Source: an uncultured Deinococcales bacterium
GTDB taxonomy: Bacteria > Deinococcota > Deinococci > Deinococcales > JAAFIG01
NCBI GenBank assembly: GCA_964247135.1
Contig: CAXTTL010000057.1
Span: forward strand, 1-22,499
Length of the DNA: 22,499 nucleotides
Direction of reading: 5' to 3'
The position numbers and the translations under genes were made by a program. Every line of letters starts with the position of its first letter. Within the stretch, counting starts at the first letter, position 1. A model generated the notes under the pieces. The model searched no databases and was not told the DNA's origin. It worked only from the letters and a program-made list of their open reading frames with translations. Below, piece by piece: positions 2 to 22,499 of this stretch.

Positions 2-331
2 CGCCGCCTCTTCCGCGCCAACCGCATCCAAACTGCCCATGACCAAACCGTTCATGCCGTAGACAATCCTCGCGCCTCCAAGTGCCACCAAATTCACTTC
101 TTTTTCCTCGCCTGGTTCAAAACGCACCGCCGTTCCTGCCGCAAGCTCGAGCCTCATGCCATACGCGACTTCACGGTCAAAACGCAGGGCGCGGTTGACT
201 TCAAAAAAATGAAAATGACTGCCGACCTGAATCGGTCGGTCTGCCGTGTTTGCCACGGTCACTCGAGCCGTGGCGCGTCCGACGTTGGCTTGAATATCAC
301 CGTCTGCAAGAATGTATTCACCTGGAATCAT
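2..331 (-). CDS. ureB: Urease subunit beta (3' end runs off the window)
   Basis: Not in the ORF track. Manual translation from ATG at 331 gives [79 protein letters not shown], with the UreB motifs [12 protein letters not shown] and [16 protein letters not shown] just upstream; lies downstream of ureA. Confidence 0.97.
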
Positions 332-350
332 GGGTGCTCCGTTTTTGAAG

Positions 351-409
351 GTAGGGTGCGCCGTGCGCACCGTTTTGCATGTGTCATTGGTGCGCACGGC
401 GCACCCTAC
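351..409. repeat. REPIN-like doublet of GTAG-type REP elements
   Basis: GTAGGGTGCGCCGTGCGCACC (351-371) and its exact reverse complement (389-409), separated by a 17-nt spacer. Each unit is GTAG followed by an imperfect palindrome. A near-identical doublet lies at 21309-21367. Confidence 0.9.
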
Positions 410-417
410 AAGAACCC

Positions 418-441
418 GGGCGCATGGCAATGCGCCCCTAC
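418..441 (-). repeat. Single GTAG-type REP element (second sequence class)
   Basis: Minus strand reads GTAG-GGGCGCAT-TGCC-ATGCGCCC: a GTAG tetranucleotide followed by an 8-bp stem-loop. Confidence 0.75.
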
Positions 442-449
442 GTCAACCA

Positions 450-752
450 TCAACGAATCGGGTCGTGAATCGTCACCAGTTTCGTGCCGTCCGGAAACGT
501 GCCTTCAACTTGAATGTCGTGAATCATTTCGGCAACGCCGTCCATCACGTCATCTCGAGTCAAGATGGTTGCGCCGTAATTCATGAGTGCCGCGACGCTT
601 TGCCCGTCGCGGATACCCTCGAGCACTTCGCTGGTAATCAAGGCGATGGCTTCGGGGTGATTGAGTTTTAAGCCTCTGGCTTTGCGGCGGCGTGCGAGGT
701 CGCCAGCGACCACGATCATCAGTTTGTCTCGTTCTCGTTCGGTCAAGTGCAT
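450..752 (-). CDS. ureA: Urease subunit gamma
   Basis: 100 aa [11 protein letters not shown]...[19 protein letters not shown]...[19 protein letters not shown], a canonical UreA. GGAGG RBS upstream. Confidence 0.98.
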
Positions 753-923
753 TGTTATTCCCTCCGTGGGTTTTTAGTTTACGCGAGACAGCCGTGGCGG
801 TGTGGCTCGAGTTGAGCCGTGTCAGTTTACAATATCTGCTGTTTGCAAAGTGTACTTAATTTTTGCGACATCTTGCAAGCATTGACAGGTTTGTTCCAAG
901 TATGCTTCAATCTTTCTTGCAAG

Positions 924-947
924 TTGTTCACAATATTTTGATCAAAA
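924..947. promoter_or_regulatory. Candidate operator dyad in the divergent ureA/urtA promoter region
   Basis: TTGTTCACAATATTTTGATCAA (924-945) is 18/22 self-complementary and overlaps the perfect palindrome TTTTGATCAAAA (936-947), in an AT-rich intergenic region. Regulator unknown. Confidence 0.4.
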
Positions 948-1009
948 GTCAAATTTAAAACGAACACCATGCAATTACAAAACTCGAGCATCATTTTTAA
1001 GGGGGCAGT

Positions 1010-2221
1010 ATGAAGAAATTCACCAGCACGAACGTGGCTTTGGGATTGGCTTTCGGTACACTTGGCTGCATCGGCATCCTGGGCGCAACACTGGCGCAAG
1101 ACTCGAGCATCAAAGTGGGTATCTTGCACTCGCTGACGGGCACGATGGCAATCTCGGAAATCACGGTGGCAAACGCCACCCAACTTGCCATCGACGAGAT
1201 CAACGCGGCGGGTGGCGTGATGGGTAAGACCATTTCTTCGGTTAAAGAGGACGGCGCATCCGACTGGCCCACCTTCGCCCAAAAAGCCGAAAAACTGATT
1301 CAGCAAGACAAGGTCGTGGCGGTTTTCGGCGCTTGGACCAGCGCCAGCCGCAAGAGTTTGTTGCCTGTCTTTGAAAAGTACAACAGCCTCTTGTTCTATC
1401 CCGTGCAATTTGAAGGCAACGAGTGCAGCCCGAACATCATTTACTCGGGCGCCCAACCCAACCAGCAAGCCTTGCCAGCGCTCGATTACGCGCTCGAGAA
1501 GGGCTTCAAGAAAATCTTCTTGCTGGGGTCGGATTACGTTTACCCGCGCACCGCAAATCTTATTTTAAAAAAGCACATCGCCGCCAAAAAAGCCACGCTC
1601 TCGGGCGAGGAATACATGGCGCTCGGCGGGACTGAATTTGCTTCGATCATCTCCAAGATCAAAGCTGCCGCGCCTGATGTGATCATCAACACCCTCAACG
1701 GTGACAGCAACGTGGCATTCTTCAAGCAATACAAAGCCGCCGGTTACGACGCGAAAAAACTTCCGGTCATCAGCTTCTCGATAGCCGAACAAGAAGCCCA
1801 AGCCATCGGCACAGAATTGTTGAACGGGCAGTACGCCGCCTGGAATTACTTCCAGAGCCTTGACAACGCACCAAACAAAAAATTTGTTGCCGCCTACAAA
1901 AAAGCCTTCGGTGCGGACGCCGTCATCACCGACCCGATGATTCATGGTTACATCGACGTCTACCTCTGGAAAGCCGCCGTCATGAAAGCCAAGAGCTTTG
2001 ATCCAGTTGCCGTGCGCAAAGCCATCGTCGGCATCAGCCTCAAAGACAGCCCAATGGGTCCCATCACGGTCAAACCCAACGGTTCGATCACCCAACGCGT
2101 GTACGTTGGCGAGAGCGGCGAGGGCGGACAATTCAAGATCGTCTGGGATTCCAAAAAAGCCGTCAGCCCAGAACCATACGACAAGCTGACCTTCCCAGGC
2201 AAAACCTGCCCAGCGAAGTAA
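1010..2221 (+). CDS. urtA: Urea ABC transporter substrate-binding protein
   Basis: Signal peptide, then IKVGILHSLTGTMAISE, EDGASDWPTFAQKAEKL, WTSASRK, LLFYPVQFEGNECSPNI, GSDYVYPRTAN and NTLNGDSNVAFF, all typical of UrtA. Adjacent to urease genes. Confidence 0.96.
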   Translation: MKKFTSTNVALGLAFGTLGCIGILGATLAQDSSIKVGILHSLTGTMAISEITVANATQLAIDEINAAGGVMGKTISSVKEDGASDWPTFAQKAEKLIQQDKVVAVFGAWTSASRKSLLPVFEKYNSLLFYPVQFEGNECSPNIIYSGAQPNQQALPALDYALEKGFKKIFLLGSDYVYPRTANLILKKHIAAKKATLSGEEYMALGGTEFASIISKIKAAAPDVIINTLNGDSNVAFFKQYKAAGYDAKKLPVISFSIAEQEAQAIGTELLNGQYAAWNYFQSLDNAPNKKFVAAYKKAFGADAVITDPMIHGYIDVYLWKAAVMKAKSFDPVAVRKAIVGISLKDSPMGPITVKPNGSITQRVYVGESGEGGQFKIVWDSKKAVSPEPYDKLTFPGKTCPAK

Positions 2222-2369
2222 TTTAAACTCGAGTTGAACGATTTGGGCTGGGGGAGGGAAACCCTGCGACCAATCATCTCAAAGCTTCACCGCAAGATTT
2301 TGCAAACTCGAGATAACGCAGCATTTTCTTCTCGAGTTACGATTTGAACCCATCATTTTTTTCCTCCTG

Positions 2370-2440
2370 TCCCCTCGCGTTTCCTGGCGCGAGGGGATGA
2401 ACAGCAAAAAGAGAACCCGATTTTTTTTACTCGGGTTTTT
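2370..2440 (+). terminator. Two intercistronic hairpins between urtA and urtB (partial terminator or mRNA-stabilising element)
   Basis: TCCCCTCGCG-N8-CGCGAGGGGA (2370-2397) and AACCCGA-N10-TCGGGTT (2414-2437) ending in a T run. Confidence 0.55.
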
Positions 2441-2456
2441 AGAGAGGAGTGAGCGC

Positions 2457-3365
2457 TTGAACGAACTTTTTATTGTCGAACAACTGTTTAATGGTTTATC
2501 CATCGGTTCTATATTGTTGCTCGCCGCGCTGGGTTTGGGTTTGAGTTTTGGTTTGATGCGCGTGATCAACATGGCGCACGGCGAAATGCTGATGATCGCG
2601 GGCTACATCACCTACCTCTCGAGCCAGTGGGTGCATGGTTCGGGTTACATCTGGCTGGCAATACCCTTGTCTTTTGCGGGAACATTTATCATCGGCGCGT
2701 TGCTCGAGACGCTGGTGATACGGCGCTTGTACGGTCGTCCGCTGGATACGCTGCTCGCCACTTGGGGCGTCAGTCTGATCTTGCAACAGGCGGGGCGCAG
2801 CATTTTTGGTCCGACAGGCGTGCCTGTGACTGCCCCAGATTGGCTATCGGGCGCGGTCACGATCTCGAGTGGGACGTTAAACGGTTTAGCCATTCCGTTC
2901 TCGAGGTTGTTCGTGCTGGCGCTGGCGGCGGTGGTCTTGCTTGCCATGTGGTGGTTGCTGCAAAAAACCAGTTTCGGAATGCACGTGCGGGCGGTCAATC
3001 AAAACCGTGAAGTCGCCCAGAGTTTGGGTGTCAACACCCGCATGGTGGACATGCTGGTGTTCGCACTCGGTTCGGGGATTGCTGGCATTGCAGGGGCGGC
3101 ACTGGCGCTGCTCTCACCCGTCAACCCGACGGTTGGGCAGGGTTACATTGTCAACGCGTTCTTGGTCGTGATCGTCGGCGGGATCGGCAGTATCGCAGGC
3201 ACAGCACTTTCAGCCATCGTGCTCGGCTTCATGACCGCCGCCACCGAAAGCCTGACCAGCGTCAGCCTCGCCAAAGTGATCGTGCTGGTGTTCGTGGTCG
3301 CCTTATTGCAAATCAGACCCAAAGGTTTCATCAGCGTGCGCTCGAGGGCGTTGGAGGATTCATGA
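2457..3365 (+). CDS. urtB: Urea ABC transporter permease
   Basis: FNGLSIGSILLLAALGL, FGLMRVINMAHGEMLM and LYGRPLDTLLATWG are UrtB motifs. Start moved to TTG at 2457 because AGGAG (2445-2449) lies 7 nt upstream; the ORF-track start at 2397 runs through the hairpin. Confidence 0.94.
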   Translation: MNELFIVEQLFNGLSIGSILLLAALGLGLSFGLMRVINMAHGEMLMIAGYITYLSSQWVHGSGYIWLAIPLSFAGTFIIGALLETLVIRRLYGRPLDTLLATWGVSLILQQAGRSIFGPTGVPVTAPDWLSGAVTISSGTLNGLAIPFSRLFVLALAAVVLLAMWWLLQKTSFGMHVRAVNQNREVAQSLGVNTRMVDMLVFALGSGIAGIAGAALALLSPVNPTVGQGYIVNAFLVVIVGGIGSIAGTALSAIVLGFMTAATESLTSVSLAKVIVLVFVVALLQIRPKGFISVRSRALEDS

Positions 3366-4471
3366 GCTTGTTCTCTCGAGGGACGACCATTACAGTCCGT
3401 GAAATTGTGCTGCCCCTGGTGGTACTTGCCATGATTGGGGCGCCGTGGTGGCTAGACAATTACAACCTGATTTTGGTCGGACGTTTTCTGGCGTTGGCGG
3501 TGGTCGCCATCGGCATTTCGCTGGTTTGGGGTCATACGGGCATCCTCAGTTTGGGACAAGGTTTGTTCTTTGGTTTGGGCGGTTATGCCATCGCCATGCA
3601 CTTAAAACTGATCGGCACACCCAAAGGCGAACTGCCAGATTTCATGATTTACAACGGCGTCGAAAGCCTGCCGTGGTGGTGGAGTCCATTCTCGAGTCCA
3701 GTTTTTGCGCTGGCGATGGTGATTGTGCTGCCGACCTTGGTGGCTGCCATTGTGGGCATTTTGATGTTCCGCAAACGCATCACGGGCGTATTCGTCTCAC
3801 TGATTACCCAAGCCTTGGTGCTTGCATTCTCGACACTCCTGATTGGTTCGCAGGGGGTCACGAGCGGCACGAACGGCATCACCGATTACAAAACTTTTTT
3901 GGGCATCGAACTGAAAGGGCAAGCCTTCAACAACGGTCTGTACTGGGTGACATTGGCTTTTGTGATCCTGTCTTACCTGGGCGTGAAATGGTTCAACCGC
4001 ACCCACGCCGGCAAAATGATGGTCGCCATCCGCGACGGTGAAAACCGCGTGCGCTTTCTGGGTTACGACCCCTCGAGTTACAAGGTTTTTGTCTTCGCCC
4101 TCGGCGGTCTGCTGGCAGGCATTTCTGGCGCGTTGTACGCCGTGCACAACGGCACGATCAGCCCCGCGATGGTCGGCGTTGTGCCCAGCATCGAGATGGT
4201 GGTTTGGGTGGCACTCGGCGGGCGTGACAGCATCGGCGGCGCAATCCTCGGCATGGTCGCCGGCAATCTCGCCCGTGACCGAATCTCGAGCGCCGCGCCC
4301 GATGCATGGTTGTACGTGATGGGCTTGATTTTCGTGCTGGTGGTGCTGGTCATGCCCAAAGGCTTGGCGGGTTTGCTGCGACCGATTCTCGCCATTCCAC
4401 TTTTCAAATTCTCGAGCAATCCCAAAACAAAACCTCAAAATTCCAAGCTCGAGGTGACACAAGATGCTTGA
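3362..4471 (+). CDS. urtC: Urea ABC transporter permease
   Basis: WGHTGILSLGQGLFFGLGGYAIAMHLKL, LPDFM, AIRDGENRVRFLGY and SIEMVVWVALGGR motifs. ATGA overlap with urtB. Confidence 0.95.
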   Translation: MSLFSRGTTITVREIVLPLVVLAMIGAPWWLDNYNLILVGRFLALAVVAIGISLVWGHTGILSLGQGLFFGLGGYAIAMHLKLIGTPKGELPDFMIYNGVESLPWWWSPFSSPVFALAMVIVLPTLVAAIVGILMFRKRITGVFVSLITQALVLAFSTLLIGSQGVTSGTNGITDYKTFLGIELKGQAFNNGLYWVTLAFVILSYLGVKWFNRTHAGKMMVAIRDGENRVRFLGYDPSSYKVFVFALGGLLAGISGALYAVHNGTISPAMVGVVPSIEMVVWVALGGRDSIGGAILGMVAGNLARDRISSAAPDAWLYVMGLIFVLVVLVMPKGLAGLLRPILAIPLFKFSSNPKTKPQNSKLEVTQDA

Positions 4472-5246
4472 GGCAACGCAAATGGAGTCTCAAGAAAACA
4501 TCCTCTCCCTCGAGCATGTCACCGTCAGTTTTGATGGTTTTAAAGCCGTCGATGACCTGAGTTTCAGCGTTCCCAAAGGCACGGTGCGCGTGGTGATCGG
4601 ACCGAACGGCGCTGGCAAAAGCACCATGTGCGATGCCGTGATTGGCAAAGTTCGTCCCGCCAGCGGACGCGTGCTGTTCAACGGACAGGAGATCAGCAAG
4701 CTTTCCGAACACGCCATTGCACGGCTCGGCATCTGCCGAAAATTTCAAACCCCTGGTGTGCTCGAGAACCTCACCGTGCTCGAGAATTTGGCGGTTGCCG
4801 TGCGCAAAGACAAAGCCTGGTGGAACAATTTGCGCCCAGGTTTGCACCGGTCCGAAACCGCTCGGGTGAGCGAATTGCTCGAGTTGATCGGCTTGACTGA
4901 GAAACAAGAGATGCTCGCCGCGCAACTCGCACACGGCGAAAAACAATGGCTCGAGATTGGCATGGTCGTCGCCGCCGACCCGCAATTGCTGCTGCTGGAC
5001 GAACCCACAGCCGGCATGACCACGCTCGAGACTTCCAAAACCGCCGAGATCATTCAAAAACTCTCTGGCAAGCACACCATCATCGTGATCGATCACGACA
5101 TGGGTTTCGTCGAACAACTCGGCGCGAGCGTCAGCGTTTTGCACCAAGGGAAACTGTTTAAAGAAGGCAGTGTGCTCGAGGTTCGGAACGACCCTGGGGT
5201 GATTGAGATTTATTTGGGACGGGCAAAAGAACACGCTCATGTCTAA
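4464..5246 (+). CDS. urtD: Urea ABC transporter ATP-binding protein
   Basis: Walker A GPNGAGKS, GICRKFQTP, LAHGEKQWLEIGM, Walker B LLLLDEP. Confidence 0.95.
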   Translation: MLEATQMESQENILSLEHVTVSFDGFKAVDDLSFSVPKGTVRVVIGPNGAGKSTMCDAVIGKVRPASGRVLFNGQEISKLSEHAIARLGICRKFQTPGVLENLTVLENLAVAVRKDKAWWNNLRPGLHRSETARVSELLELIGLTEKQEMLAAQLAHGEKQWLEIGMVVAADPQLLLLDEPTAGMTTLETSKTAEIIQKLSGKHTIIVIDHDMGFVEQLGASVSVLHQGKLFKEGSVLEVRNDPGVIEIYLGRAKEHAHV

Positions 5247-5282
5247 ACCAGATGCTCGAGAATTCAAATTCAGGAGTTCCTC

Positions 5283-5990
5283 ATGCTCGAGTTAAAATTT
5301 GTCAACGCGGCTTATGGTAAATCTCAAGTGCTTTGGGAAATCAACCTCAACGTTCAGGACGGCGAGGCGGTGGCACTCATGGGACGCAACGGCGTGGGCA
5401 AAACCACACTCCTTCGCAGCATTGTCGGGATTCATCCGGTCAGCACTGGACGAATTCAATTTGGTGATGAACCGCTGTTTCAAGGTTTGCCTGCGTATGA
5501 ACGGGCGCGACGCGGGCTGGCGTATGTGCCGCAAGGTCGTGGAATTTTTCCACATTTGACGGTGCAAGAAAACTTGCTGATGGGGCTGCCAGCACTCTCG
5601 GGGCGGAAACTCTCGAGCAAAGCCGTGCCTGAAATTGTTTTTGAACTCTTCCCAATTTTGTTTGATTTCAAAGACCGCAAGGGTGGCAATCTTTCGGGCG
5701 GTCAGCAGCAACAACTTGCGATTGGACGGGCGCTCGTGACGCAACCCAAATTGTTATTGCTCGACGAACCCACCGAAGGCATTCAACCCAGCATCGTGAT
5801 CGAAATTGAAGCGGCGTTAACTCGAGTTCGCAAAGAACTTGGCGTGGCGGTGTTGTTGGTCGAACAGTATTTTGAATTTGCCTGGTCGTTCGCAGATCGG
5901 TTTTTTGTGATGCAAAAAGGACGGATTATCGACAAGGGGCATACGAACGAACGCAGTGCTGAGAGTGTTGAAGCGTTGTTGGGCGTTTAA
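5283..5990 (+). CDS. urtE: Urea ABC transporter ATP-binding protein
   Basis: Walker A GRNGVGKT, AYVPQGRGIFP, LSGGQQQQLAIGRAL, LLLLDEPTEGIQPSI. AGGAG RBS upstream. Confidence 0.95.
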   Translation: MLELKFVNAAYGKSQVLWEINLNVQDGEAVALMGRNGVGKTTLLRSIVGIHPVSTGRIQFGDEPLFQGLPAYERARRGLAYVPQGRGIFPHLTVQENLLMGLPALSGRKLSSKAVPEIVFELFPILFDFKDRKGGNLSGGQQQQLAIGRALVTQPKLLLLDEPTEGIQPSIVIEIEAALTRVRKELGVAVLLVEQYFEFAWSFADRFFVMQKGRIIDKGHTNERSAESVEALLGV

Positions 5991-6268
5991 TATGCGCTGT
6001 CATGGTCAGGATGCAAACTCACAAAAACCACAAAGTCATTGTTACGCCGTACCAATGCACGACATTTTTGGGTAATGCGAATACTGTAAAACCGTTCACC
6101 ATGCACTTCTCGAGCCAGTTCCCAATTCAGTCCAGAATCTTTATAAACTTGATCCCAGGATAAGGGCAGTGATTTTCTTAAGGTTTTTATGACTGCAAGT
6201 TGATCTGATTTTTCCAAAGAAAACCAATCTTTGAGAAAATCGGAATCGTTTAAGTCAAGTTTTGGCAT
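5987..6268 (-). CDS. Putative type II toxin, RelE/ParE-like
   Basis: 93 aa with a RelE-like pattern (FLKDWFSLEK...RFYSIRITQKCRALV...FVSLHPDHDSAY). Starts immediately after the stop of the upstream small gene; low GC. Family is inferred from pattern only. Confidence 0.65.
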   Translation of the reverse strand: MPKLDLNDSDFLKDWFSLEKSDQLAVIKTLRKSLPLSWDQVYKDSGLNWELAREVHGERFYSIRITQKCRALVRRNNDFVVFVSLHPDHDSAY

Positions 6269-6538
6269 TTATTGTTGCCCGAGAATCTGTGCTTCGATGG
6301 CATCTAAATCAGATTCTGTGGAGGTTTGATTTTTGGCAAGATGTTTTTCCAATCGTGCCGTTACTTCTGGAGTGTACGCCCACATCAAATGCTCTGGAAT
6401 AATTTGCACGGGTGTCACCATCCAACGTCCATCTTCTAAGTGCTCGAGTTTGACGACTTTGCCAGCGAAAGCTTTGCCCAACGAGATTTGTCCGCTCGAG
6501 GAGATGGTTTTGATTTCACCGTTTGATATTTGTGTCAT
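6269..6538 (-). CDS. Putative type II antitoxin, AbrB/MazE/SpoVT-like
   Basis: 89 aa with an N-terminal swapped-hairpin-like segment IKTISSSGQISLGKAFAGKVVKLEHLEDGRWMVTP and an acidic C-terminus (ESDLDAIE). Antitoxin-first order. Confidence 0.7.
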   Translation of the reverse strand: MTQISNGEIKTISSSGQISLGKAFAGKVVKLEHLEDGRWMVTPVQIIPEHLMWAYTPEVTARLEKHLAKNQTSTESDLDAIEAQILGQQ

Positions 6539-6568
6539 AACAAGGCACTATATCATTTTTTAACAAGG
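6539..6568 (-). promoter_or_regulatory. TA operon promoter: extended -10 flanked by a direct repeat
   Basis: Minus strand CCTTGTT-AAAAAA-TGA-TATAGT-G-CCTTGTT-ATG: TGnTATAGT 8 nt before the ATG, no Shine-Dalgarno, CCTTGTT repeated on either side. Confidence 0.6.
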
Positions 6569-6583
6569 CGGACATTGCAAATT

Positions 6584-7669
6584 TCAACTTGCGCCCAAGA
6601 AAACCCGCATTCGCTCAAGTTCAGCCTCGAGTGCGATGTCAAACTTTTTAGATTTTGGTTTGCCTGCCACGAATCCAAGCTCAGACTCGAGTGTTCCAGC
6701 CACGACTTTTAAATTGCCCCAACCAATGATTTTGTCTTGCCAGAGCAGCGGCAGCGCGTAATAACCGAGCTTGCGTTTGGCGGGAGGCGTGTAGGCTTCA
6801 AAGCGGTACTCCCAACCGTGCAGGTGCTCAAAACGCCTTCTGTCCCAGACCACAGGGTCGAACGGGGCGAGCAGGCGCACTTCGGGTTTGATGTCGGTCT
6901 CGAGTGAATCCGTGCCAGACCAAAAATATTTCAGTCCATCGAGTTTGAGTGTCTCGAGTTCGGTCTTAACGGTTTTGAGAACCTTTCTGATCTCGAGTTT
7001 TAAATGCGGTGCGCCGAAATGACCCGCAAAAGCGACGAGTTGATTTAGGGTTTGTTCTGGCAGTGGCGCGTAGACGCTTAAGATCAAATCAATCAAACCT
7101 TTTGCCATGTCGTGATTGGAAAGCGGTTGCTCGAGAAACGGTTGCAGGTGTGCTGCGGCTTCGTAGACTTTGATGCCGTTGTCGCGCCTTGCGACACGCA
7201 GATGACCTCGGTAATGCAAACCGTCTAAAGCCCTGGTGGTGGCTTGCGAACCACCGCCCCAGTAATTGCCCACGCGTTGCTTGCCGAATTCTTGGGTCAA
7301 TTCTTTTGGATGCGTCGCCCCGTTTTCACGCACAAACTCGAGCACGAGATTGGTCAAACCAGGGGCTTCAGTTTCGATTCTCAGGGTTCTGTCAAACGTG
7401 CGCGGGTGCATGAAGGCTTGGAGTTCGCGGGGCATAAAACCGTAATTCACAAAAAAATCTTCTTCAACACCAAGCTTTGCATATTTTTGCTCGAGATCGC
7501 CCGCTGTGTAATTTTTTACGCGCTGCATCAAAATCAAATCTTGCGCTCGGGCGGGGGCACGAATCGGGTCGGCTTGCACAAACCCCAACCTCGAGATGGC
7601 GGTTTTGAGTTTGGCTTCACGCCACAAAGACCTGTGAACGCTGAAGGCGCGAAGTTGCTCGAGATTCAT
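6584..7669 (-). CDS. YcaQ/AlkZ (HTH_42) family DNA glycosylase, interstrand crosslink repair
   Basis: Catalytic QxD motif in LGFVQADPIRAPARAQDLIL and C-terminal LLAPFDPVVWDRRRFEHL.GWEYRFEAYTPPAKRKLGYYALPLL. Start moved to ATG 7669 (361 aa), since the longer ORF overlaps a terminator and the upstream gene. Confidence 0.9.
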   Translation of the reverse strand: MNLEQLRAFSVHRSLWREAKLKTAISRLGFVQADPIRAPARAQDLILMQRVKNYTAGDLEQKYAKLGVEEDFFVNYGFMPRELQAFMHPRTFDRTLRIETEAPGLTNLVLEFVRENGATHPKELTQEFGKQRVGNYWGGGSQATTRALDGLHYRGHLRVARRDNGIKVYEAAAHLQPFLEQPLSNHDMAKGLIDLILSVYAPLPEQTLNQLVAFAGHFGAPHLKLEIRKVLKTVKTELETLKLDGLKYFWSGTDSLETDIKPEVRLLAPFDPVVWDRRRFEHLHGWEYRFEAYTPPAKRKLGYYALPLLWQDKIIGWGNLKVVAGTLESELGFVAGKPKSKKFDIALEAELERMRVFLGAS

Positions 7670-7699
7670 ATGTTTACAGCATAACGCAAATCGAAAACG

Positions 7700-7730
7700 A
7701 AAAACCCCGGCACAGAAATTTGTGCAGGGG
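7700..7730 (-). terminator. Rho-independent terminator after the DUF11 lipoprotein gene
   Basis: Minus strand CCCCTGCACA-AATTTC-TGTGCCGGGG followed by TTTTTCGTTTT. Confidence 0.8.
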
Positions 7731-14825: not shown

Positions 14826-14831
14826 GCAAGA

Positions 14832-15332
14832 TCAATCTTCAATCTCAACTTCCTCGAGTTGCAAATTCTTGCGCCAATCTTCGAGCGCGGTGCGTATCAC
14901 CCCGCTCGAGAATCCACGGCGCATCATAAAACCGTAGGCTTTCTCAAAAGCTCGAGCGCCAGTCCATTTGTAAGATTGCTTTTCCACCAGCGCTTTTGCA
15001 TTCTCGAGTTCATCGGTGTTGGAACGTTCCATCAGGGCATCTTCGACGATATGACGGTTGACCCCTCGAGAGGCAAGTTTTTGGCTTATTGCGAATTTGC
15101 CTTTGGTCGTGTCCCTGACGGCAGATTCGGCGATGGCTTGGTCGGACAAGAATTTGAGTTCAATCAATTTCTCGAGGGTCTGATTGGCAACCTCTTCGCT
15201 CGCGCCGCGTTGACGCAACTTGCGGTTCAGTTCGTGTTTGGTCAAGGCTCGAGCCGCCAGCGCCCGAATCGCGTAAGCCAGCGCGTCTGAGGCTTTGAGC
15301 GAACCTGGTTGTGGTCTTGGCTTCCAGTTCAT
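14832..15332 (-). CDS. recX: RecX family regulatory protein
   Basis: DALAYAIRALAARALTKHELNRKLRQRG..LEKLIELKFLSDQAIAE..KGKFAISQKLASRGV..KAYGFMMRRGFS fits the RecX three-helix repeats. Start moved to ATG 15332 (ATGA overlap with the amidase stop), 166 aa. Confidence 0.9.
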   Translation of the reverse strand: MNWKPRPQPGSLKASDALAYAIRALAARALTKHELNRKLRQRGASEEVANQTLEKLIELKFLSDQAIAESAVRDTTKGKFAISQKLASRGVNRHIVEDALMERSNTDELENAKALVEKQSYKWTGARAFEKAYGFMMRRGFSSGVIRTALEDWRKNLQLEEVEIED

Positions 15333-16516
15333 TTTTTGATTTTTAAGAATTTTAGAATGCCGTTCGCAATGCCTTTGGCAACTTTTTGCGAGTACCATGC
15401 CGTGCCAAGGTTGCGCCCCTCGGTTGGGTTCGTGCCAAAACCAATCTCGGTCAAAATCGCGGGAATTCGGGCAAAGCGAATCACCCACAACGAGTTGGGA
15501 TGCACACCCCTCGAGCGAGCGCCCGTTTGAGCCAGCAAGTTTGCTTGAACGTCTTTTGCCAAGATTCTCGAGAATTTCAGGTTTTCTTGCACCAACTGGT
15601 CGTTGATGAGGTCCCTGGCGGCATTGCGGGTTTGGCGGGTCAGCTCGCGTCCGATGCTGCCGCCACCGTTTTCGCGTTCGGCTTGCGCCAGGGTGCTCGA
15701 TTCGAGCGGTTCGCCAAACACATAGGTTTCGATGCCTTGGGCGCTTGACGCGCCAGCGTTGACATGAATCGAGACGAACAAATTGCGATCTGTGGACGCC
15801 ATGTTCGCCCGCCAGCTCAGGTCTTTGCGTTTCTCGAGGATGCTGGGGGTTTTTTGCAATGCGTAATCGCCGGTGCGGGTCATGACCACGTTGACGCCTG
15901 CCGCCTCGAGGATCGCTCGGACTTTAAGCCCAACGTTCAAAGTCACTTGTTTTTCCATGACATAACCCAACATCCCCGAATCGATGCCACCATGCCCAGG
16001 ATCAAGAACAACTGTGTACTTGCGGGTTGGCGGACGGGCGGTCGGTGGTTTGGCTTTGAGGACCTCATTGGCGCCGGTGATCGAATTGCTCGGTTTGGCT
16101 TCGAGTCCCAATTTGATGCCGACATCGACCACCACACGGTACGGGTTGTCTGCATCGGCATCGAGCGCAAAGACGCGATAACCCTTATTGACGCCAAGGT
16201 CAAACGTGGTCTTTAAAATCAGGTTTGCCGTACCCGCATCCGACTCGAGCTTCCAGGTCGCCACCTCACCCGTGTCGCCCGAGCCTGCGACTTCGGTGGC
16301 GGTGGCGGGTTTTAAGTGCAATATCAGGGTGCGTCCAGAAACGTTTAAAAGCCATTTGGGTTTGCTGGGGGCGTCCATCACAATTCGGGTGAAACCCTCG
16401 TCTGGGTGGGCGGCAAGGCGCGGTGTGCCGACGCCGTTGGCTTGGGCGAGCAAGGGTGAAGCGAGCAGCAAAGAAATGGCTGCAATGGTAAAAAATGGGA
16501 TCAAACCAAAACGCAT
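15329..16516 (-). CDS. N-acetylmuramoyl-L-alanine amidase (AMIN-like plus Amidase_3, AmiC-like)
   Basis: Signal peptide, AMIN-like FTRIVMD..YRVVVDV, and Zn-amidase motifs VVLDPGHGG, EKQVTL, VVMTR, FVSIHVNA, PAILTEIGF. Confidence 0.93.
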   Translation of the reverse strand: MRFGLIPFFTIAAISLLLASPLLAQANGVGTPRLAAHPDEGFTRIVMDAPSKPKWLLNVSGRTLILHLKPATATEVAGSGDTGEVATWKLESDAGTANLILKTTFDLGVNKGYRVFALDADADNPYRVVVDVGIKLGLEAKPSNSITGANEVLKAKPPTARPPTRKYTVVLDPGHGGIDSGMLGYVMEKQVTLNVGLKVRAILEAAGVNVVMTRTGDYALQKTPSILEKRKDLSWRANMASTDRNLFVSIHVNAGASSAQGIETYVFGEPLESSTLAQAERENGGGSIGRELTRQTRNAARDLINDQLVQENLKFSRILAKDVQANLLAQTGARSRGVHPNSLWVIRFARIPAILTEIGFGTNPTEGRNLGTAWYSQKVAKGIANGILKFLKIKK

Positions 16517-16585
16517 GACAACAGTATAGTGCGATTTGAAAATTCTACCAGTCCAGATGTTGTGGGTTCGTTCAGGAAAAGCAAG

Positions 16586-17617
16586 TCATTTTTCGACAAA
16601 GACAAGGTCATTGGTATCAACCCCAAACTTCACTTGATTGCCAGTAACGTTCAGCAAGCTCGAGAAACGCACGGTTTGCCCTTTGGTGAGGACCAGATCG
16701 TCTTCTGCAACGCCAATGTTTTGCGTGGAAATCATCCAGTCTTTGATCGAACCCAGGCTGGCATTTTTGGCTTTGGCATTGAAGTAACTGATGGCACGCC
16801 TGAAGAGTTTGGGCAGGATCAAAACGCCGCGCTCGTTCACCGAATCTCGAGAAATCAGTTTGAAATTGCTGCTGGCATCCCGCGCCCAGACACCCAATTT
16901 GGAGGCTCGAGCTTGCAGAGTTAAACCTCGTAAAAAACTGCGGTGCGCCTCTGGGGTGCTCGAGTAGACAGTCAGGTACGCCATGCCGTTCTCGAGTTGT
17001 CTGGCGTTTAAAGTTTGGCGCAACATGGTGTCCGTGACGTTGACTCGCGTTCCATCCTTGAAGCCTGTTGCATCTTTCTCGAGCAGCACATAACTGATTG
17101 GGCGTCCATTGACTTCGGCGGCATGGGATAAAATCGCACCGCGCACGGTTTGGACGCTGGCAGAAATCACAGTTGCACCATTGGGTTTAAACTGCGGATT
17201 TTTAAAACCCATCAGTTTCAGAAGCGCATCTCGAGATTCGCTGCCCAGCGGTTGGGCGGCTCCCAAATAATGCAGTTCAGGCGCGTCGATGGCTTCAAAC
17301 CGCAATTGCACCGAGTGGTCCTTGGAAAGCCGAATGCGGTAATGGTTCTCGAGTTTACCCAGTAAGCTTGGGTCATCGGCAATAAAGCGCACGCTGTCGC
17401 CGTCAGGTTGCTTACCGACAATCACGAACGACCCTCGAATCAAAAGAAAACCTGGCGAATTTGAGGCTTGACTCGGGCTTGGGTTGGGTTTGGTTTGATT
17501 TAAAATTGGCGAATTGTTGCTGGGGCTTGAAGCTCGAGGCGCAAGCAACATCCAAACCAAAAACCCGCCAAGCACCAGGGTCAGCAATGGGAACAACCAC
17601 GGGCTTTTGAGGGACAC
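16586..17617 (-). CDS. Secreted or membrane-anchored thermonuclease (SNase-like) family protein
   Basis: N-terminal hydrophobic helix, a Ser/Pro/Asn linker, then PDGDSVRF and LRFEAIDAPELH motifs and LNARQLENGMAY..ARASKLGVW. GTG start with TAAACT 6 nt upstream. Confidence 0.8.
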   Translation of the reverse strand: MSLKSPWLFPLLTLVLGGFLVWMLLAPRASSPSNNSPILNQTKPNPSPSQASNSPGFLLIRGSFVIVGKQPDGDSVRFIADDPSLLGKLENHYRIRLSKDHSVQLRFEAIDAPELHYLGAAQPLGSESRDALLKLMGFKNPQFKPNGATVISASVQTVRGAILSHAAEVNGRPISYVLLEKDATGFKDGTRVNVTDTMLRQTLNARQLENGMAYLTVYSSTPEAHRSFLRGLTLQARASKLGVWARDASSNFKLISRDSVNERGVLILPKLFRRAISYFNAKAKNASLGSIKDWMISTQNIGVAEDDLVLTKGQTVRFSSLLNVTGNQVKFGVDTNDLVFVEK

Positions 17618-17637
17618 CGTTCAAGTTTACTCGAGAT

Positions 17638-19239
17638 TTACGGCAAAACGGTGCGGATTTGATTCTTACCAGCACTTTTGCCCGACAAGAGCATCGTGTC
17701 GGCTTTGGCAATCACGGCTTCGATACTGGTTTCGCCCTCAACGAATGCCACACCGATGGTGGCACCCAATTGATGCTCGCCCGCGCTAGAAACAATGGGG
17801 GTGTCATGAATCGCCGCCCGCACCCGCTCGAGAAAACCATCGGCTTCCAGTGGGCTGATGCCTGGTAAGAGGATGGCGAATTCGTCGCCGCCCAACCGTC
17901 CGATCAAATCGCTGGCACGCAATGAATTGGTGATGCGTTGCGCGGCGATGGTCAGCACCTCGTCGCCCGCCTTATGCCCCCAAAAGTCGTTGACGCCCTT
18001 AAAACCGTCCAGGTCGAGCAGTGCCACCGTAACGGGTTGCTGATTGCGTCTCGAGCTTAAAATTTGCGCATTGGCACGTTTGATAAATTCGGCACGGTTC
18101 AGTAAGCCCGTCAAAGAATCGACGCTGGCTTGGCGCACCAAGATCGAGAGCGGTTTGGTGATCCTGAACGCCAGTGGAATCGCCAACAGCCAGGTCAGCA
18201 GACTGATGCCCACCACCTGCCAGATGTAGCGATTGGCTCGAGCGTTGATCTCGCCCGTAAAGTCGCTGACTGGGGCGTGCAGACCGATCAACCATTTTGT
18301 GCCGTACCCTATCGAGAATGGACTGAGCATTCCGTACTCGAGGGTACTGCCAGCTTTAAACTCGAAGAAGTTGCGATTGGAGTTCAGGGATGTCAGGTTC
18401 GAGCGTTTCAGCAGCGTCTGAACCGCCTCGTTGCCGATGCTTTCAATTTTTGGCAGGGCGGGCTGATCGGTTTTTTTGGATTCCTCGAGCAAAATTGGCG
18501 CCAATTTTGGGAATGACACCGCCATGCCATGTTCGTCCATGATGAACGCCTGACCGTGTTCGCTGATCGGGATGCGTTCAATAAACTCTGAAAGTTTGGT
18601 GATTTCGACATCGACCCCGACCACACCCAACAGCTTGCCAGCGGCGTTTAATATTGGGGCTGCCGAGGTGACACCAGGTTTTTTGGAGGTAAAAAACACG
18701 TAGGGTCCAGTCCAAATTTGTTGTTTGGCTTGAACTGCACCCTTATACCAGGGTCGCGTTCGAGGGTCGTAGGTGTCCATCAAATCGGTTTTTTGCACGA
18801 TCTGTTTTAAATTGCGATCTCGAGAGGTCAGGCGCACCACCCGACCGCCGACCACCCGAATGTCTTTGGTTAAAAAACCAGTCGCATCGCGCTTGACAAA
18901 CAAGAACTCGCCGTTGGGTTTAGCCAGATACATGCCGTTCAGTTGATCTTGACTTTGCAACTGCGCCAGAAAATAACGCTCGAGCTTGGCGTTGTCGTCC
19001 AATTCAAACACGCCCTGCTTGAGCATTCGGGAGGTCAATTGAGCGCTGCGTTCGGCGGGTTGCACAAACCGCAAGGAGTTCTCGGCGGCACTTTCGACCA
19101 GATGGTGCATGACCACCCGCGCGTGGTCGCGCAGCACGTCTTCGGTGTTGGCTCGAGATGATGCCAGCACCCCAATCAAAGTCAGGAGCTGAACAATCAA
19201 TAAAACGGCAATCAAAATGTAACGCAACCAGGGCAACAT
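17638..19239 (-). CDS. Membrane sensor diguanylate cyclase (Cache plus GGDEF)
   Basis: Two TM helices flank a dCache-like region (YDPRTRPWY, WTGPYVF, GVVGVDV). DSLTGLLNR, LDLDGFKGVND..GH..GD and GGDEF are present, with an intact RxxD I-site (RASD). Start moved to ATG 19239 after GAGGT. Confidence 0.92.
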   Translation of the reverse strand: MLPWLRYILIAVLLIVQLLTLIGVLASSRANTEDVLRDHARVVMHHLVESAAENSLRFVQPAERSAQLTSRMLKQGVFELDDNAKLERYFLAQLQSQDQLNGMYLAKPNGEFLFVKRDATGFLTKDIRVVGGRVVRLTSRDRNLKQIVQKTDLMDTYDPRTRPWYKGAVQAKQQIWTGPYVFFTSKKPGVTSAAPILNAAGKLLGVVGVDVEITKLSEFIERIPISEHGQAFIMDEHGMAVSFPKLAPILLEESKKTDQPALPKIESIGNEAVQTLLKRSNLTSLNSNRNFFEFKAGSTLEYGMLSPFSIGYGTKWLIGLHAPVSDFTGEINARANRYIWQVVGISLLTWLLAIPLAFRITKPLSILVRQASVDSLTGLLNRAEFIKRANAQILSSRRNQQPVTVALLDLDGFKGVNDFWGHKAGDEVLTIAAQRITNSLRASDLIGRLGGDEFAILLPGISPLEADGFLERVRAAIHDTPIVSSAGEHQLGATIGVAFVEGETSIEAVIAKADTMLLSGKSAGKNQIRTVLP

Positions 19240-19350
19240 GAAAACCTCAAAACAACCCAATATTTAGAACGCAAGCCAAAAACAAGTGTTCGTTAAACTG
19301 TAATTCAGCTTACGCAACATTGCACCAAAAATACAACCAGGCTCGAGGTT

Positions 19351-20850
19351 TTAAGCCAGGCTGTCACGAATAAAAGCGCTTAAATCGGTCTTCAGTTGTG
19401 CCAAACTTGGCGCGTGAACGTACATCATGTGACCCGCAGGGTAAAACGTCATGCGAATGTTCGGCGCCAGGCTGGCGTCCAAAGACAGGTGTTTGAAGGT
19501 GTAATCGGTGGCAAAGTACGGCGTTGCCAGATCAAAATAACCGTTTGCCACAATCACTTTTAAGTTTGGATTGCTGCTCATGGCTTTGCGCATGGTTTCA
19601 GAAACATTGACAAAGCGGTTCTCAAATTCTTTGTACGACCAGGGTCTGACCGCACTGGTCAGGATATTGTACGGCAAATCGGATTCAAAACCAAGCTCAG
19701 ACCGCACGTAATGGTTGAGCGCCGCAGAATATGGACCCGTGATCGCGGCATGGCTTGGATCAAACTCGAAATACTGACCCGCCGCATCGCGGTCAATGCC
19801 CTTAAAACGACTGTCGAGCCGTCCGACGGTGCGCCCAGAATCCCGCAGCAATTCTTTGCAAAACCGCATGATCTCGAGCCTTAAATCGCAACGGTCCAAA
19901 AAGCTTTCAGAGATGCCCGTGAATTTTGAGAGTTGCTTCAAAACTCCGGCTCGGTCTTTGGCGCTTAAGCTCGAGCCTTTAAAGAGCGCCGCCGCGTACT
20001 CGCCAGAGGCGAATTCTTCGGCAAGCTTGAGGGTTTTGGCAAGGTCTTTTTGCAAGGCTGGCTCGAGTTTTTGGTGATACCAAGCGGTTGCCGTGTAGGT
20101 TGGCAGGTATAAAACATAAGGCAGGTCATGTCCAGGCTCGAAAACCGCCGTCGAAAACTCCAGGATACTCGAGATCAGCATCAAACCGTTGAGGTACAAG
20201 CCGTGACGGTCTTGAAGATAACCGCTCAAACCTGCCGCTCGGGTCGTGCCGTAAGACTCGCCCGCCAAGAATTTGGGCGACAACCAACGCTGGTGACGGC
20301 TGGTGTAGAGCCTGATAAAATCCCCAACGGACTCGATATCGGCTTGAAAACCGTGAAAATCTTTGGCTTTCACCCCCTCGCTCGCCCTCGAGAAACCCGT
20401 GCTGACCGGATCGATAAACACCAGATCGGTCTGGTCTAAAATCGAGAATTCGTTGTCTTCAAGCCCATACGGCGGCGGCAGCAAGGCGTCAACATCGCCC
20501 ATGCGCACCTTGCGCGGACCGAGCGCCCCCAAATGCAACCAGACGCTCGAGCTGCCAGGACCACCGTTGAACGAGAACGTGATCGGACGTTTGGTGATGT
20601 CTTTGACAGCGTCTTTGGTGTACGCCGTAAAAAACACGCTGGCTCGAGCCGTCTCGGGTTTGGTGTCGCTTTCGCGGTCGGTGGTTTCAGACCGCAGCAC
20701 CATCGTTCCAGTCGTGACGGTGTACTTGATTTCCTGCCCCCCGATTCGCACCCGATGCTTGCTGGTGCTGATGTTATCTGTCATGGCTGCGGGTGTTAGC
20801 GGTGCAGGCGTGGCAGCTTTGGTTTCCTCTGGTTTGACATTTTCAGGCAT
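19351..20850 (-). CDS. S10 family serine carboxypeptidase
   Basis: FSFNGGPGSSS, DLVFIDPVSTGFS, nucleophile motif GESYG, GYFDLATP and AGHMMY. No obvious signal peptide. Confidence 0.93.
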   Translation of the reverse strand: MPENVKPEETKAATPAPLTPAAMTDNISTSKHRVRIGGQEIKYTVTTGTMVLRSETTDRESDTKPETARASVFFTAYTKDAVKDITKRPITFSFNGGPGSSSVWLHLGALGPRKVRMGDVDALLPPPYGLEDNEFSILDQTDLVFIDPVSTGFSRASEGVKAKDFHGFQADIESVGDFIRLYTSRHQRWLSPKFLAGESYGTTRAAGLSGYLQDRHGLYLNGLMLISSILEFSTAVFEPGHDLPYVLYLPTYTATAWYHQKLEPALQKDLAKTLKLAEEFASGEYAAALFKGSSLSAKDRAGVLKQLSKFTGISESFLDRCDLRLEIMRFCKELLRDSGRTVGRLDSRFKGIDRDAAGQYFEFDPSHAAITGPYSAALNHYVRSELGFESDLPYNILTSAVRPWSYKEFENRFVNVSETMRKAMSSNPNLKVIVANGYFDLATPYFATDYTFKHLSLDASLAPNIRMTFYPAGHMMYVHAPSLAQLKTDLSAFIRDSLA

Positions 20851-20956
20851 GAATAAGCTTAACCCCAGGAACCAAACTTATGCTTGTCTCGTAAAGAGCG
20901 TTAGAGTAGAACCATGCACCTCGAGCCAAACGCTCGAGCATCTCAAGGAGGCAGAC

Positions 20957-21289
20957 ATGAAGGCACTGAAATACTGGGGTTTGGCAATCGGAATGGCAAT
21001 CGTTTTTACGGCGTGCAGCGCAGAACAGCAAAACACGTTCAGACGTGACGTGCTGAATTTGGCGAACGCCAGACATTACATTGTCTTGTACGGCGTCAAC
21101 GGCAGCGAACTTTTCAGGGGCGAACTCAACGGCAAGGTCACTCGAGCCGAAAAAGGAGCCGATGGCAACGGCGGCGAGTATGTGTACTGGTTTGATACGG
21201 CGGGCAAATACTGGCAAACCAATTTGCCGTACTTGGTGACCACCGATGACAAGCGCACCGGTGTGCTGACCAGCCCAATCAAACGTTAA
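20957..21289 (+). CDS. Small hypothetical lipoprotein (110 aa)
   Basis: Strong RBS AAGGAGG, ATG 20957, signal peptide and lipobox MKALKYWGLAIGMAIVFTA-C. This is the 3' part of the 20363-21289 ORF. Confidence 0.8.
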   Translation: MKALKYWGLAIGMAIVFTACSAEQQNTFRRDVLNLANARHYIVLYGVNGSELFRGELNGKVTRAEKGADGNGGEYVYWFDTAGKYWQTNLPYLVTTDDKRTGVLTSPIKR

Positions 21290-21308
21290 ACTGACTCGAG
21301 CTTATCCC

Positions 21309-21367
21309 GTAGGGTGCGCCCTGCGCACCAAGAACACGCAAACCACGGTGCGCACGGCGCACCCTAC
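21309..21367. repeat. REPIN-like doublet of GTAG-type REP elements between convergent genes
   Basis: GTAGGGTGCGCCCTGCGCACC (21309-21329, one mismatch to the 351 copy), a 17-nt spacer, then GGTGCGCACGGCGCACCCTAC (21347-21367, identical to 389-409). Confidence 0.9.
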
Positions 21368-21392
21368 AACCCTCAAGCTTCCTAAAAAGCGC

Positions 21393-22499
21393 TTAGACTT
21401 GTTTTAGGCGCTTTTCTGCGGTTTCTCGCGCCAATGCCGCTTTGGTGACTTCACCCAGTCCCTCGAGCGCGGCGGCGTGTTTTAACCAGTTGTAAGGGCT
21501 GCGTGGTCGCACGCTGATGCGTTCGCTCAGGATTGACCTCGCCAGGTCGTAACGCCCGCCGCGCAGTGCAGCTTCGATCAGCGTTTTTAAGACCGCGTCG
21601 CGTTGCGCGTGCGACCCACCAAATTCGTGAATTCGTCGCCTGATTGGGAACAAATGCTCGATCACGGCGGCAAAATTCCTGCGTCCAAACTCGAGGATGG
21701 CTTTGCAGACAGGCAAACCGATTTCGCGGGTCATAGCGACGTTGTTGATGCGCGGATTTGGATTGCTTTTCAGCCATGCCTCACGGCTTTCAATTAAATT
21801 TTGCGCCTCGAGTTCAAAACCCGCACCGACGAATGCCATCGTTATGTGCATGTCGTTGAAGGCATAAAATGCGGGTTCGGTCTTGTGCAACCAACGGCTC
21901 GCCACCGCCTTGAAGCGTTCGAGTTCGCTGTGACCCTCGAGTTTTAAACGCCACAACAACGCAGTGGCATCGAGCAGTTCCAATGCCAAATCGCCACTGT
22001 CTGAAGTGAACAGCGCCGTGTCAAAAATCTGACGCACCCGCTCAATATTGCCCGCCTCGAGCGCGAACAGGGCGTAATGCCACCAGTTGTGAATCAAAAA
22101 ATAATTGCCGAGGGTCCAATCCTCAGCTCGAGCGTCGTAATAATTCATTCCATCTTCAAAACGCCCCGTCTCCTCGAAGGTGTGACCCACCGCATGAAGC
22201 GCCCAAACATCTTTGGCGTTGCGTTCCACCGCGTCCAAACCCAACTCGAGCGCCCGGTCATGCTGATGGCATTCCTCAAGTCCGAACGCCAGCATCCCGA
22301 GCACGTTCGAGTAATTCGCATCGTGTTCCGACCAGGCGGCAATCGCCTGCCCAGGACGGTCACGCAGCATCCTCGAGTTGCCCGTGAAAAAATCGATTTG
22401 ATGCCCCACCCCAAGCGCCAGCAAATCCCTCGGGTGCGAAATGGTAATTTCCTCGAGGATTCGTCCCGCACCCCAAAAATCACCCTCAAGCAACGCTTC
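21393..22499 (-). CDS. TTC38-like tetratricopeptide repeat protein (5' end outside the window)
   Basis: HPRDLLAL, GMLAFGLEEC, DVWALHAVGH, HNWWHYALF, LDATALLWRL, FNDMH and GGSHAQRD match the TTC38 family pattern. Confidence 0.85.
   Translation of the reverse strand, partial: EALLEGDFWGAGRILEEITISHPRDLLALGVGHQIDFFTGNSRMLRDRPGQAIAAWSEHDANYSNVLGMLAFGLEECHQHDRALELGLDAVERNAKDVWALHAVGHTFEETGRFEDGMNYYDARAEDWTLGNYFLIHNWWHYALFALEAGNIERVRQIFDTALFTSDSGDLALELLDATALLWRLKLEGHSELERFKAVASRWLHKTEPAFYAFNDMHITMAFVGAGFELEAQNLIESREAWLKSNPNPRINNVAMTREIGLPVCKAILEFGRRNFAAVIEHLFPIRRRIHEFGGSHAQRDAVLKTLIEAALRGGRYDLARSILSERISVRPRSPYNWLKHAAALEGLGEVTKAALARETAEKRLKQV

Follow-up and report, generated by a model that had tools for sequence, protein, structure and literature searches.

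Hyper-abundance of the palindrome CTCGAG in an uncultured Deinococcales bacterium and its relatives

The CTCGAG array in the window and across the genome

The distribution of the palindrome CTCGAG was analyzed in a stretch of 22,499 nucleotides from an uncultured Deinococcales bacterium (contig CAXTTL010000057.1, C57, of assembly GCA_964247135.1), here called the window, and in the assembly to which it belongs (5,091,702 bases in 386 contigs, GC content 52.7%, completeness 84%). An earlier reading of the window, made from the sequence only, had put the number of sites at about 150 and proposed a genome-marking system. Counting gave 151 exact copies, dispersed from 146 to 22457 at about one per 149 bp. 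In 100 dinucleotide-preserving shuffles of the window the expectation was 4.32 copies (standard deviation 1.76, maximum 9), and none of the shuffles reached 151. Inside the 16 listed open reading frames (ORFs) lie 134 of the sites (6.57 per kb; 74, 18 and 42 in frames 0, 1 and 2), and the other 17 lie outside them at 8.11 per kb.

All three frames are readily illustrated on the plus strand. The ORF at 5283-5990 starts with ATG-CTC-GAG (site at 5286-5291, frame 0) and contains a second site read as nCT-CGA-Gnn (5821-5826, frame 1), while the site at 1102-1107 within the ORF at 1010-2221 is read as nnC-TCG-AGn (frame 2). These examples, already chosen in the sequence-only reading, hold against the ORF coordinates, and the twelve intergenic positions named there (806, 983, 2228, 2307, 2331, 5255, 10096, 17630, 19342, 20920, 20933 and 21295) are all in the site list and all outside long ORFs. 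Three of them (2228, 2307 and 2331, spanning 2228-2336) are located in the spacer between the ORF at 1010-2221, whose product is a urea-type periplasmic binding protein, and the ORF at 2397-3365. Two others, 13 bp apart (20920-20938), follow downstream of the ORF at 19351-20850.

The whole genome contains 33,925 copies of CTCGAG (6.66 per kb), which take up about 4% of all bases. This is 24.8 times the expectation from base composition and makes CTCGAG the top hexamer, more than twice as frequent as any other; the hexamers next in rank are its own overlaps, and the second most abundant palindrome reaches 3,272 copies. The sequence-only reading had considered that the excess might be confined to one contig. 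CTCGAG is present on all 297 contigs of at least 5 kb, at 2.56-10.53 per kb (median 6.77), and a contig artefact is therefore excluded. The control hexamers are far from equally frequent: GAGCTC is absent (0 copies) and GTCGAC is found 121 times, 0.09 of expectation. HIP1, the highly iterated palindrome (HIP) of cyanobacteria (GCGATCGC), has 2 copies in the genome and CGATCG has 47. Most other GC-rich palindromes of 6 bp are strongly avoided genome-wide. A test against an order-4 Markov model returned an observed/expected ratio (O/E) of only 1.24 and was discarded as uninformative, because the pentamers CTCGA and TCGAG consist almost wholly of the CTCGAG motif.

Palindrome avoidance in this genome is extreme also at the level of tetramers (GGCC, O/E 0.02; CTAG, O/E 0.07). 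GGGCCC, CGGCCG, AGGCCT, CGTACG and GGATCC have 1-7 copies each, an avoidance that resembles that of cyanobacterial genomes.

Recognition is all-or-none and bound to the exact hexamer. The nine classes of one-off neighbours range in O/E from 0.08 to 1.74 across the genome. CTAGAG has the lowest value; it includes CTAG, a tetramer avoided in general. A mild rise is seen in the three neighbours that differ by a transition (1.17-1.74, with CTTGAG at 1.17 and TTCGAG at 1.74), as would follow if decaying copies from the huge CTCGAG pool feed them. TCGA outside CTCGAG occurs at expectation (20,685 observed, 19,754 expected). Flanking bases were scored in 5,018 sites with a fully non-coding context of 30 nt. 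The preference is weak and symmetric, with A at -3 and T at +3 (0.42) and G at -1 and C at +1 (0.35-0.36), and carries at most 0.11 bits per position. Such symmetric flanks look like reading by a symmetric, restriction-modification-like DNA reader. The low flank information also means that CTCGAG is not part of a longer repeat. An origin in dispersed repeats, such as repetitive extragenic palindromes (REP) or miniature inverted-repeat transposable elements (MITE), or in an assembly or adapter artefact, is extremely improbable: sites stand in frame inside conserved genes, and genomes assembled independently of one another, one of them a single-contig chromosome, share them at the same positions.

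Codon usage and the imprint on proteins

With crude ORF calls, CTCGAG has a density of 6.52 per kb in coding DNA and 7.38 per kb in the remainder of the genome. Coding sites are divided over frames 0, 1 and 2 as 17,075, 4,419 and 6,466, so that frame 0, where the motif encodes Leu-Glu as CTC-GAG, holds 61%. This share would suit an explanation by coding preference, in which a moderately GC-rich genome that favours certain amino acids and codons or dicodons accumulates the motif as a side effect, and so would the several-fold excess seen together with abundant GAGCTC in high-GC relatives and in some high-GC phage contigs. We carried out a synonymous shuffle within each gene, which keeps the amino-acid sequence and the codon counts per gene, counts that are themselves inflated by the motif. 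The shuffle yielded 3,995 +/- 63 CTCGAG in coding DNA, whereas 27,960 are observed, a 7-fold excess. By frame the excess is 5.5-fold in frame 0 and 13- and 11-fold in frames 1 and 2. For GAGCTC (Glu-Leu), 1,604 copies were expected and 0 observed. Together with the higher density in non-coding DNA, and with a Leu-Glu excess that is itself derived relative to outgroups (see below), these values leave the codon-preference explanation a negligible probability. The excess of CTCGAG depends neither on codon usage nor on the reading frame, nor on whether the DNA is coding, as the sequence-only reading had maintained in denying a mere Leu-Glu codon-pair bias.

The motif has left its imprint on the proteome. 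Leu-Glu is the most over-represented dipeptide of the genome's proteins (O/E 2.38), whereas Glu-Leu is at 1.01, and 17,075 of the 22,257 Leu-Glu are encoded as CTCGAG. Leu-Glu was then counted in identical aligned columns of putative orthologues. Here it is found 55 times against 18 in Deinococcus (9 pairs), 260 times against 107 in Chloroflexota (38 pairs) and 234 times against 180 in Meiothermus (43 pairs). In two other genera of the same family the counts are approximately equal (128 and 110; 444 and 431), and Glu-Leu counts are equal in all these comparisons. Where this genome has a Leu-Glu encoded by CTCGAG, the Deinococcus column agrees in only 15% of cases (39% for all dipeptides) and the Chloroflexota column in only 12% (19% for all dipeptides), whereas agreement within the family reaches 52-53% (40-44% for all dipeptides). 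The outgroup residues at these positions are typically LA, LT, LD, LR, VE, IE or ME. These comparisons show that thousands of Leu-Glu dipeptides were created in the proteins, and that most of them are derived relative to outgroup orthologues.

A similar contrast is seen at the DNA level in the window. The first three urt-type ORFs (1010-4471, plus strand) carry 13 CTCGAG, and their best DNA match, in a genome of another family with a GC content of 0.67, has 0 CTCGAG in 4.1 kb. Seven aligned sites read CTGGGC, CGCGGC, ATGGAG, GGCAAC, CGTGCG, GTCGCG and CGCGAG there. For the entire urt-type operon (1010-5990) this best match, at 66-75% identity, is not in the five same-genus genomes. The operon may have been acquired horizontally, or relatives may have lost it. 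Only 2 CTCGAG lie in the 1.2 kb of the first urt-type ORF.

Retention, placement and distribution of the sites

Retention of the sites, for which the sequence-only reading had asked in relatives, was determined in a same-genus comparison, in which 254 kb sampled from one genome gave 152 kb of alignment (57 segments, 83.8% identity). Intact CTCGAG were found at 859 of 1,094 positions (78.5%), compared to 41% for all hexamers. Among 204 frequent hexamers (mean retention 0.457, standard deviation 0.066) CTCGAG ranks first. Lost sites were replaced mostly via single transitions. The comparison shows that existing CTCGAG are lost far more slowly than other hexamers.

The part of the window from 14835 to 22499 can be aligned with four same-genus genomes at about 85% identity in a star-like relationship. 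It contains 62 CTCGAG positions in total. The site is common to the five genomes at 28 of them, lacking from a single genome at 15 and confined to a single genome at 10, with other patterns at the remaining 9. At 17348-17353 a clean gain is visible, where the four relatives read TTTGAG, two transitions away. Several other single-lineage sites differ from the relatives at 3-4 of the six bases within conserved flanks, for example at 15905, 16846 and 16991. At 15905-15910 the four relatives have TTGCAA, TTGTAA or TTGCAG (3-4 differences), and at 16846-16851 the relatives have CTTTAT, CTTTGT or CTTTGC with the 5' flanks conserved. New CTCGAG are thus shown to arise in single lineages.

Across the genome the sites are placed nearly at random, with a mean gap of 148, a median of 108 and a coefficient of variation of 0.96. 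The sole periodicity of the spacing is the 3-nt codon period, and long-range periodicity is absent. Short gaps below 20 bp are depleted to 0.25-0.55 of expectation, and a spacing of 6 bp is never seen because it would create GAGCTC. A spacing of 8 bp is nearly absent as well (11 cases, versus 87 for 7 bp and 115 for 9 bp). In 2,341 windows of 2 kb the O/E was 24-26 in every bin of local GC from 0.35 to 0.70, and 17.5 below 0.35, a value based on four windows only. The absolute density tracks composition and rises from 3.2 to 8.0 per kb. Constant O/E and near-random placement fit a fixed advantage per site (ln 25, about 3.2 scaled units) and argue against selection for even density.

Only 7 of the 2-kb windows have at most 1 CTCGAG per kb, and 11 stretches of at least 1.8 kb are free of the motif (C13:11892-14536, C70:14167-16418, C4:51524-53437 and 8 others). 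Low GC (0.27-0.40) characterizes 8 of the 11. The products of the 11 include a reverse transcriptase-trypsin fusion, a protein with an O-antigen ligase domain (Wzy_C), AAA_16 proteins and unknown proteins. The stretches are likely recent acquisitions, so motif density could act as a residency clock or marker. Ribosomal RNA was considered as their content and rejected; an Rfam search of ten stretches gave one tRNA only and no rRNA. In the 66 predicted tRNA genes 10 CTCGAG are found, where 34 are expected at genome density, and the 300-nt flanks of tRNA genes contain 8.7 per kb.

The closest records of a protein from the window, which stood in for RpoB as the latter is missing from the assembly, are titled 'MAG: Deinococcales bacterium' (MAG, metagenome-assembled genome; 93-94% identity), followed by Meiothermus, Trueperaceae, Deinococcus and Chloroflexota. 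Fifteen genomes of the family, from five genera with GC 0.47-0.62, were sampled by 2-20 kb each and have 3.1-7.6 CTCGAG per kb. In 14 of these samples no hexamer outnumbers CTCGAG, and 14 lack GAGCTC altogether. Twelve further MAG loci of the family type have 4.6-6.9 per kb, and GAGCTC is at 0 in all. At the whole-genome level, triple-site clusters number 120-1,241 in each of 17 genomes of this MAG-only family and at most 76 in 64 genomes of four other families; in a Deinococcus-like genus they occur in only 1 of 16 genomes.

CTCGAG richness in Meiothermus, which the sequence-only reading had mentioned, was found at an intermediate level. Eleven Meiothermus-titled loci (204 kb in total) were analyzed. 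Six come from MAGs labelled Meiothermus sp., and the other 5 belong to named species or strains in culture, M. taiwanensis DSM 14542 and M. rufus DSM 22234 among them. The eleven loci have 1.5-3.3 CTCGAG per kb, and in 5 of them no hexamer is more frequent. In 21-kb samples CTCGAG ranks first in M. taiwanensis DSM 14542, one of these five, and second in M. rufus DSM 22234. The excess over the synonymous shuffle is 2.7-, 4.4- and 4.2-fold in the three frames, non-coding DNA has 1.79 per kb, Leu-Glu has an O/E of 1.49, and 48% of Leu-Glu is encoded as CTCGAG. In Deinococcus loci the motif is avoided: 73 kb contain 6 copies, which is 0.2 of what the synonymous shuffle predicts, and Leu-Glu has an O/E of 1.01. 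Controls from Chloroflexota behave neutrally (Leu-Glu O/E 0.95). Hence the trait is graded across the order, intermediate in Meiothermus and extreme in this MAG-only Deinococcales family.

Outside the family, a low-GC genome whose record is titled uncultured Trueperaceae (L176, GC 0.43) also has CTCGAG first among its hexamers, at 2.27 per kb and an O/E of 13.5, and the 12 kb sampled lack GAGCTC. It may represent a second focus of the trait in the order. A scan of viral contigs for triple clusters gave at least 120 loci, most of them on high-GC contigs that are also rich in GAGCTC. Five IMG/VR contigs (L361, L264, L320, L326 and L273; GC 0.58-0.69) have 4-6 CTCGAG per kb and no GAGCTC. A tblastx comparison of these five with the genome studied here gave no match; they may be phages of motif-rich hosts.

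Possible origins, putative reader machinery and known systems

CTCGAG is a palindrome of the HIP type, about 25 times more frequent than expected. We favour the reading that it is held by hexamer-specific fixation bias with molecular drive behind it, and we give this reading about an even chance of being right. A strict, all-or-none bias in the fixation of substitutions, specific for the hexamer, would keep CTCGAG about 25-fold over expectation and would act as a constant multiplicative advantage of each site, in the amount given above. The agent of the drive may be a dimeric DNA-handling protein of restriction-modification-like character that recognizes CTCGAG sequence-specifically. Two routes are conceivable, biased repair of mismatches at CTCGAG sites or preferential uptake or recombination of DNA that bears them. 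The bias probably does not stem from a fitness gain at every single site. The drive is favoured because density is unregulated, placement is near-random and the 34,000th site seems to enjoy the same advantage as any other despite the cost to proteins. Of the HIP1-like genome-marking system proposed in the sequence-only reading, the lineage-wide, hyper-abundant palindrome that is created and retained has stood; the marking is conjectural.

Several points weigh against the drive reading. Drive and weak selection on each site lead to the same equilibrium and cannot be separated by sequence alone. Searches of gene content in the family genomes yielded no reader protein. Methyltransferases were compared across six genomes, with the C5, N6 and Eco57I families and, in addition, a D12 gene and three N6_N4 genes; all proved patchy or non-orthologous, and no orthogroup was common to the six. 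The repair endonuclease Vsr was found in 0 of 17 family genomes versus 6 of 64 others. A search of 19 family genomes for the XhoI-type nuclease (PF04555) gave none, which is weak evidence since the model was silent in control genomes too. The assembly is 84% complete, most relatives are sampled by stretches of 2-21 kb only, and the gene set is a crude one of 4,233 ORFs of at least 120 amino acids (aa). A look for public sequencing runs that contain the window gave none. Finally, the strictly polarized sample from the five genomes is small. It comprises 1 clean gain and 15 clean losses, too few for rates, and with the near-star tree of the five genomes the polarized count is unusable. Pairwise gain/loss ratios were discarded as they are unpolarized and their expected values ignore the need for the other five bases to remain unchanged.

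Alternatively, natural selection could maintain each CTCGAG because the individual site is useful, bound or marked for a chromosomal function that is abundant; a nucleoid protein, segregation and the discrimination of strands during repair are examples. We consider this possible, with clearly less confidence than molecular drive. Sites are strongly conserved, a similar O/E is kept across five genera of the family whose GC ranges from 0.45 to 0.62, the motif is tolerated despite its cost in protein sequence, and the symmetric flank preference fits a dimeric binding protein. However, density is unregulated, follows local GC while O/E stays constant, and comes with nearly random spacing. Where a genome already has 34,000 copies, one more should bring hardly any benefit, but the advantage per site looks constant. 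No family-specific candidate protein was found in the gene-content searches.

A special case of drive is the model of Elhai for HIPs, in which a resident methyltransferase, combined with methyl-directed mismatch repair or very-short-patch repair, restores or creates the motif. The text of PMC4390886 states that every HIP-bearing cyanobacterial genome carries a methyltransferase able to modify HIP, and CTCGAG is listed as a methylated motif in hot-spring communities in the text of a preprint (bioRxiv 10.64898/2026.06.24.734251). At least 12 methyltransferase-like genes are present in the genome studied here and several in every family genome examined, with specificities that are unreadable from sequence. 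Their distribution, however, is patchy. The three N6_N4 genes occur in 4/12, 5/12 and 4/12 family relatives, and the D12 gene occurs in 5/16, namely 4/4 of its own genus, 1/2 of another and 0/7 of the largest. Among five good genomes from five genera, a single-contig genome is without PF01555 and another is without PF00145, and an all-against-all BLAST gave no group that all of them share. The N6 methylases of about 500 aa are mostly type I HsdM. Vsr is missing as described, and the deamination neighbours CTTGAG (1.17) and TTCGAG (1.74) are not depleted. The cognate methyltransferase suspected in the sequence-only reading was therefore not recovered as a gene shared by the family. Gene content gives the model no support, and we regard it as improbable; CTCGAG itself may or may not be methylated.

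The uptake route of the drive reading takes a more definite form if CTCGAG, at one copy per 150 bp, is a self-DNA tag that is read in natural transformation or recombination of a competent lineage, a drive like that of uptake sequences which would need no dedicated conserved methyltransferase and would be independent of HIP1. We advance this only tentatively and think it rather unlikely. ComEC was found in 18 of 19 family genomes, which leaves room for an uptake route; the domain is widespread among bacteria and is also present in 10 of 14 control genomes. If the tag were real, its drive would have the strength to change some 13,000 dipeptides in the proteome, and the graded series would record how that strength evolved: Deinococcus avoids the motif, Thermus-like genomes have an excess of about 3-fold, Meiothermus one of 5-10-fold, and this family one of about 25-fold.

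The closest parallels are the HIPs of cyanobacteria. HIP1 and the alternate HIPs (GGGATCCC, TCGATCGA, GGCGCC, rCCGGy and GCsGC) given in the text of Elhai (2015, PMC4390886) are, like CTCGAG, short GC-rich palindromes and by far the most over-represented oligomers of their genomes (the class is marked by an excess of at least about 15-fold; CTCGAG has 24.8-fold). They are likewise spread over coding and non-coding DNA, conserved beyond neutral expectation and a trait of lineages, in hosts that avoid most other palindromes. In contrast to HIPs, CTCGAG has its hosts in the Deinococcota, its core is a hexamer with almost no flank information, and no cognate methyltransferase was identified for it in the family genomes. 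Its density of 6,660 per Mb exceeds the roughly 500-2,500 per Mb stated for HIPs in the text of PMC4390886. HIP1 is described as quasi-periodic in PMC5861425, whereas CTCGAG shows codon periodicity only. According to work cited in PMC13756078, HIP1 enhances transformation in a way that depends on methylation and has been proposed as an uptake sequence. CTCGAG does not appear in the text of the HIP paper PMC4390886, and a literature search that covered texts outside supplementary tables gave no report of its hyper-abundance. The text of the hot-spring preprint, its supplement aside, contains nothing on CTCGAG abundance.

The uptake signal sequences (USS) of Pasteurellaceae and the DNA uptake sequences (DUS) of Neisseriaceae share with CTCGAG that they are hyper-abundant, lie in genes and spacers, distort peptides, are conserved among relatives and can be explained by molecular drive. 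Known uptake sequences are 9-12 bp long, non-palindromic and present at about 1 per kb, whereas CTCGAG is a palindrome of 6 bp whose specificity is all-or-none and whose density is 6.7 per kb. In E. coli, Vsr together with Dcm shapes the frequencies of CCWGG and CTWGG, an effect of only a few-fold. It is comparable to the present case as a bias of repair toward one specific sequence, by which the target of a methyltransferase becomes more frequent; the difference is that Vsr was found in none of the 17 family genomes and that the T-containing neighbours of CTCGAG are not depleted. XhoI and PaeR7I recognize the same sequence with the same strict hexamer specificity. Restriction targets are normally avoided, whereas CTCGAG is hyper-abundant here, and PF04555 was found in none of the 19 family genomes with the model that stayed silent in controls.

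HIP1 has been unexplained for 30 years and studied in one phylum only. CTCGAG provides an independent and stronger case, with another phylum, another motif, 3-10 times the density and a measurable distortion of the proteome, which allows a comparative test of the explanations. Cultured Meiothermus with CTCGAG as top hexamer are tractable organisms for experiments, and the graded series within one order is a natural design for phylogenetic profiling toward the reader protein, an approach taken for HIP1 in PMC13756078 with phylogenetic correction. In practical terms, CTCGAG is a strong compositional signature for binning and for assigning mobile elements to hosts in this lineage.

The only nuclease found beside a methylase belongs to the SacI family. 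The pair lies on the minus strand of contig C320 (L133:407-2331), where the full-length gene of this nuclease (364 aa; PF09566, E 8e-7) shares 4 nt with that of a D12-class adenine methylase (277 aa). As the pair is present in only 6 of 19 genomes, it cannot explain the CTCGAG trait. It may relate to the total absence of GAGCTC from the 5.09-Mb genome. The SacI-D12 pair recurs in four same-genus genomes, and in another genus a closer SacI-like nuclease stands beside a C5 methylase. The C320 D12 methylase is 83% identical to the copy in another genus, where the average orthologue identity is 59%, which suggests that the pair is a mobile restriction-modification system.

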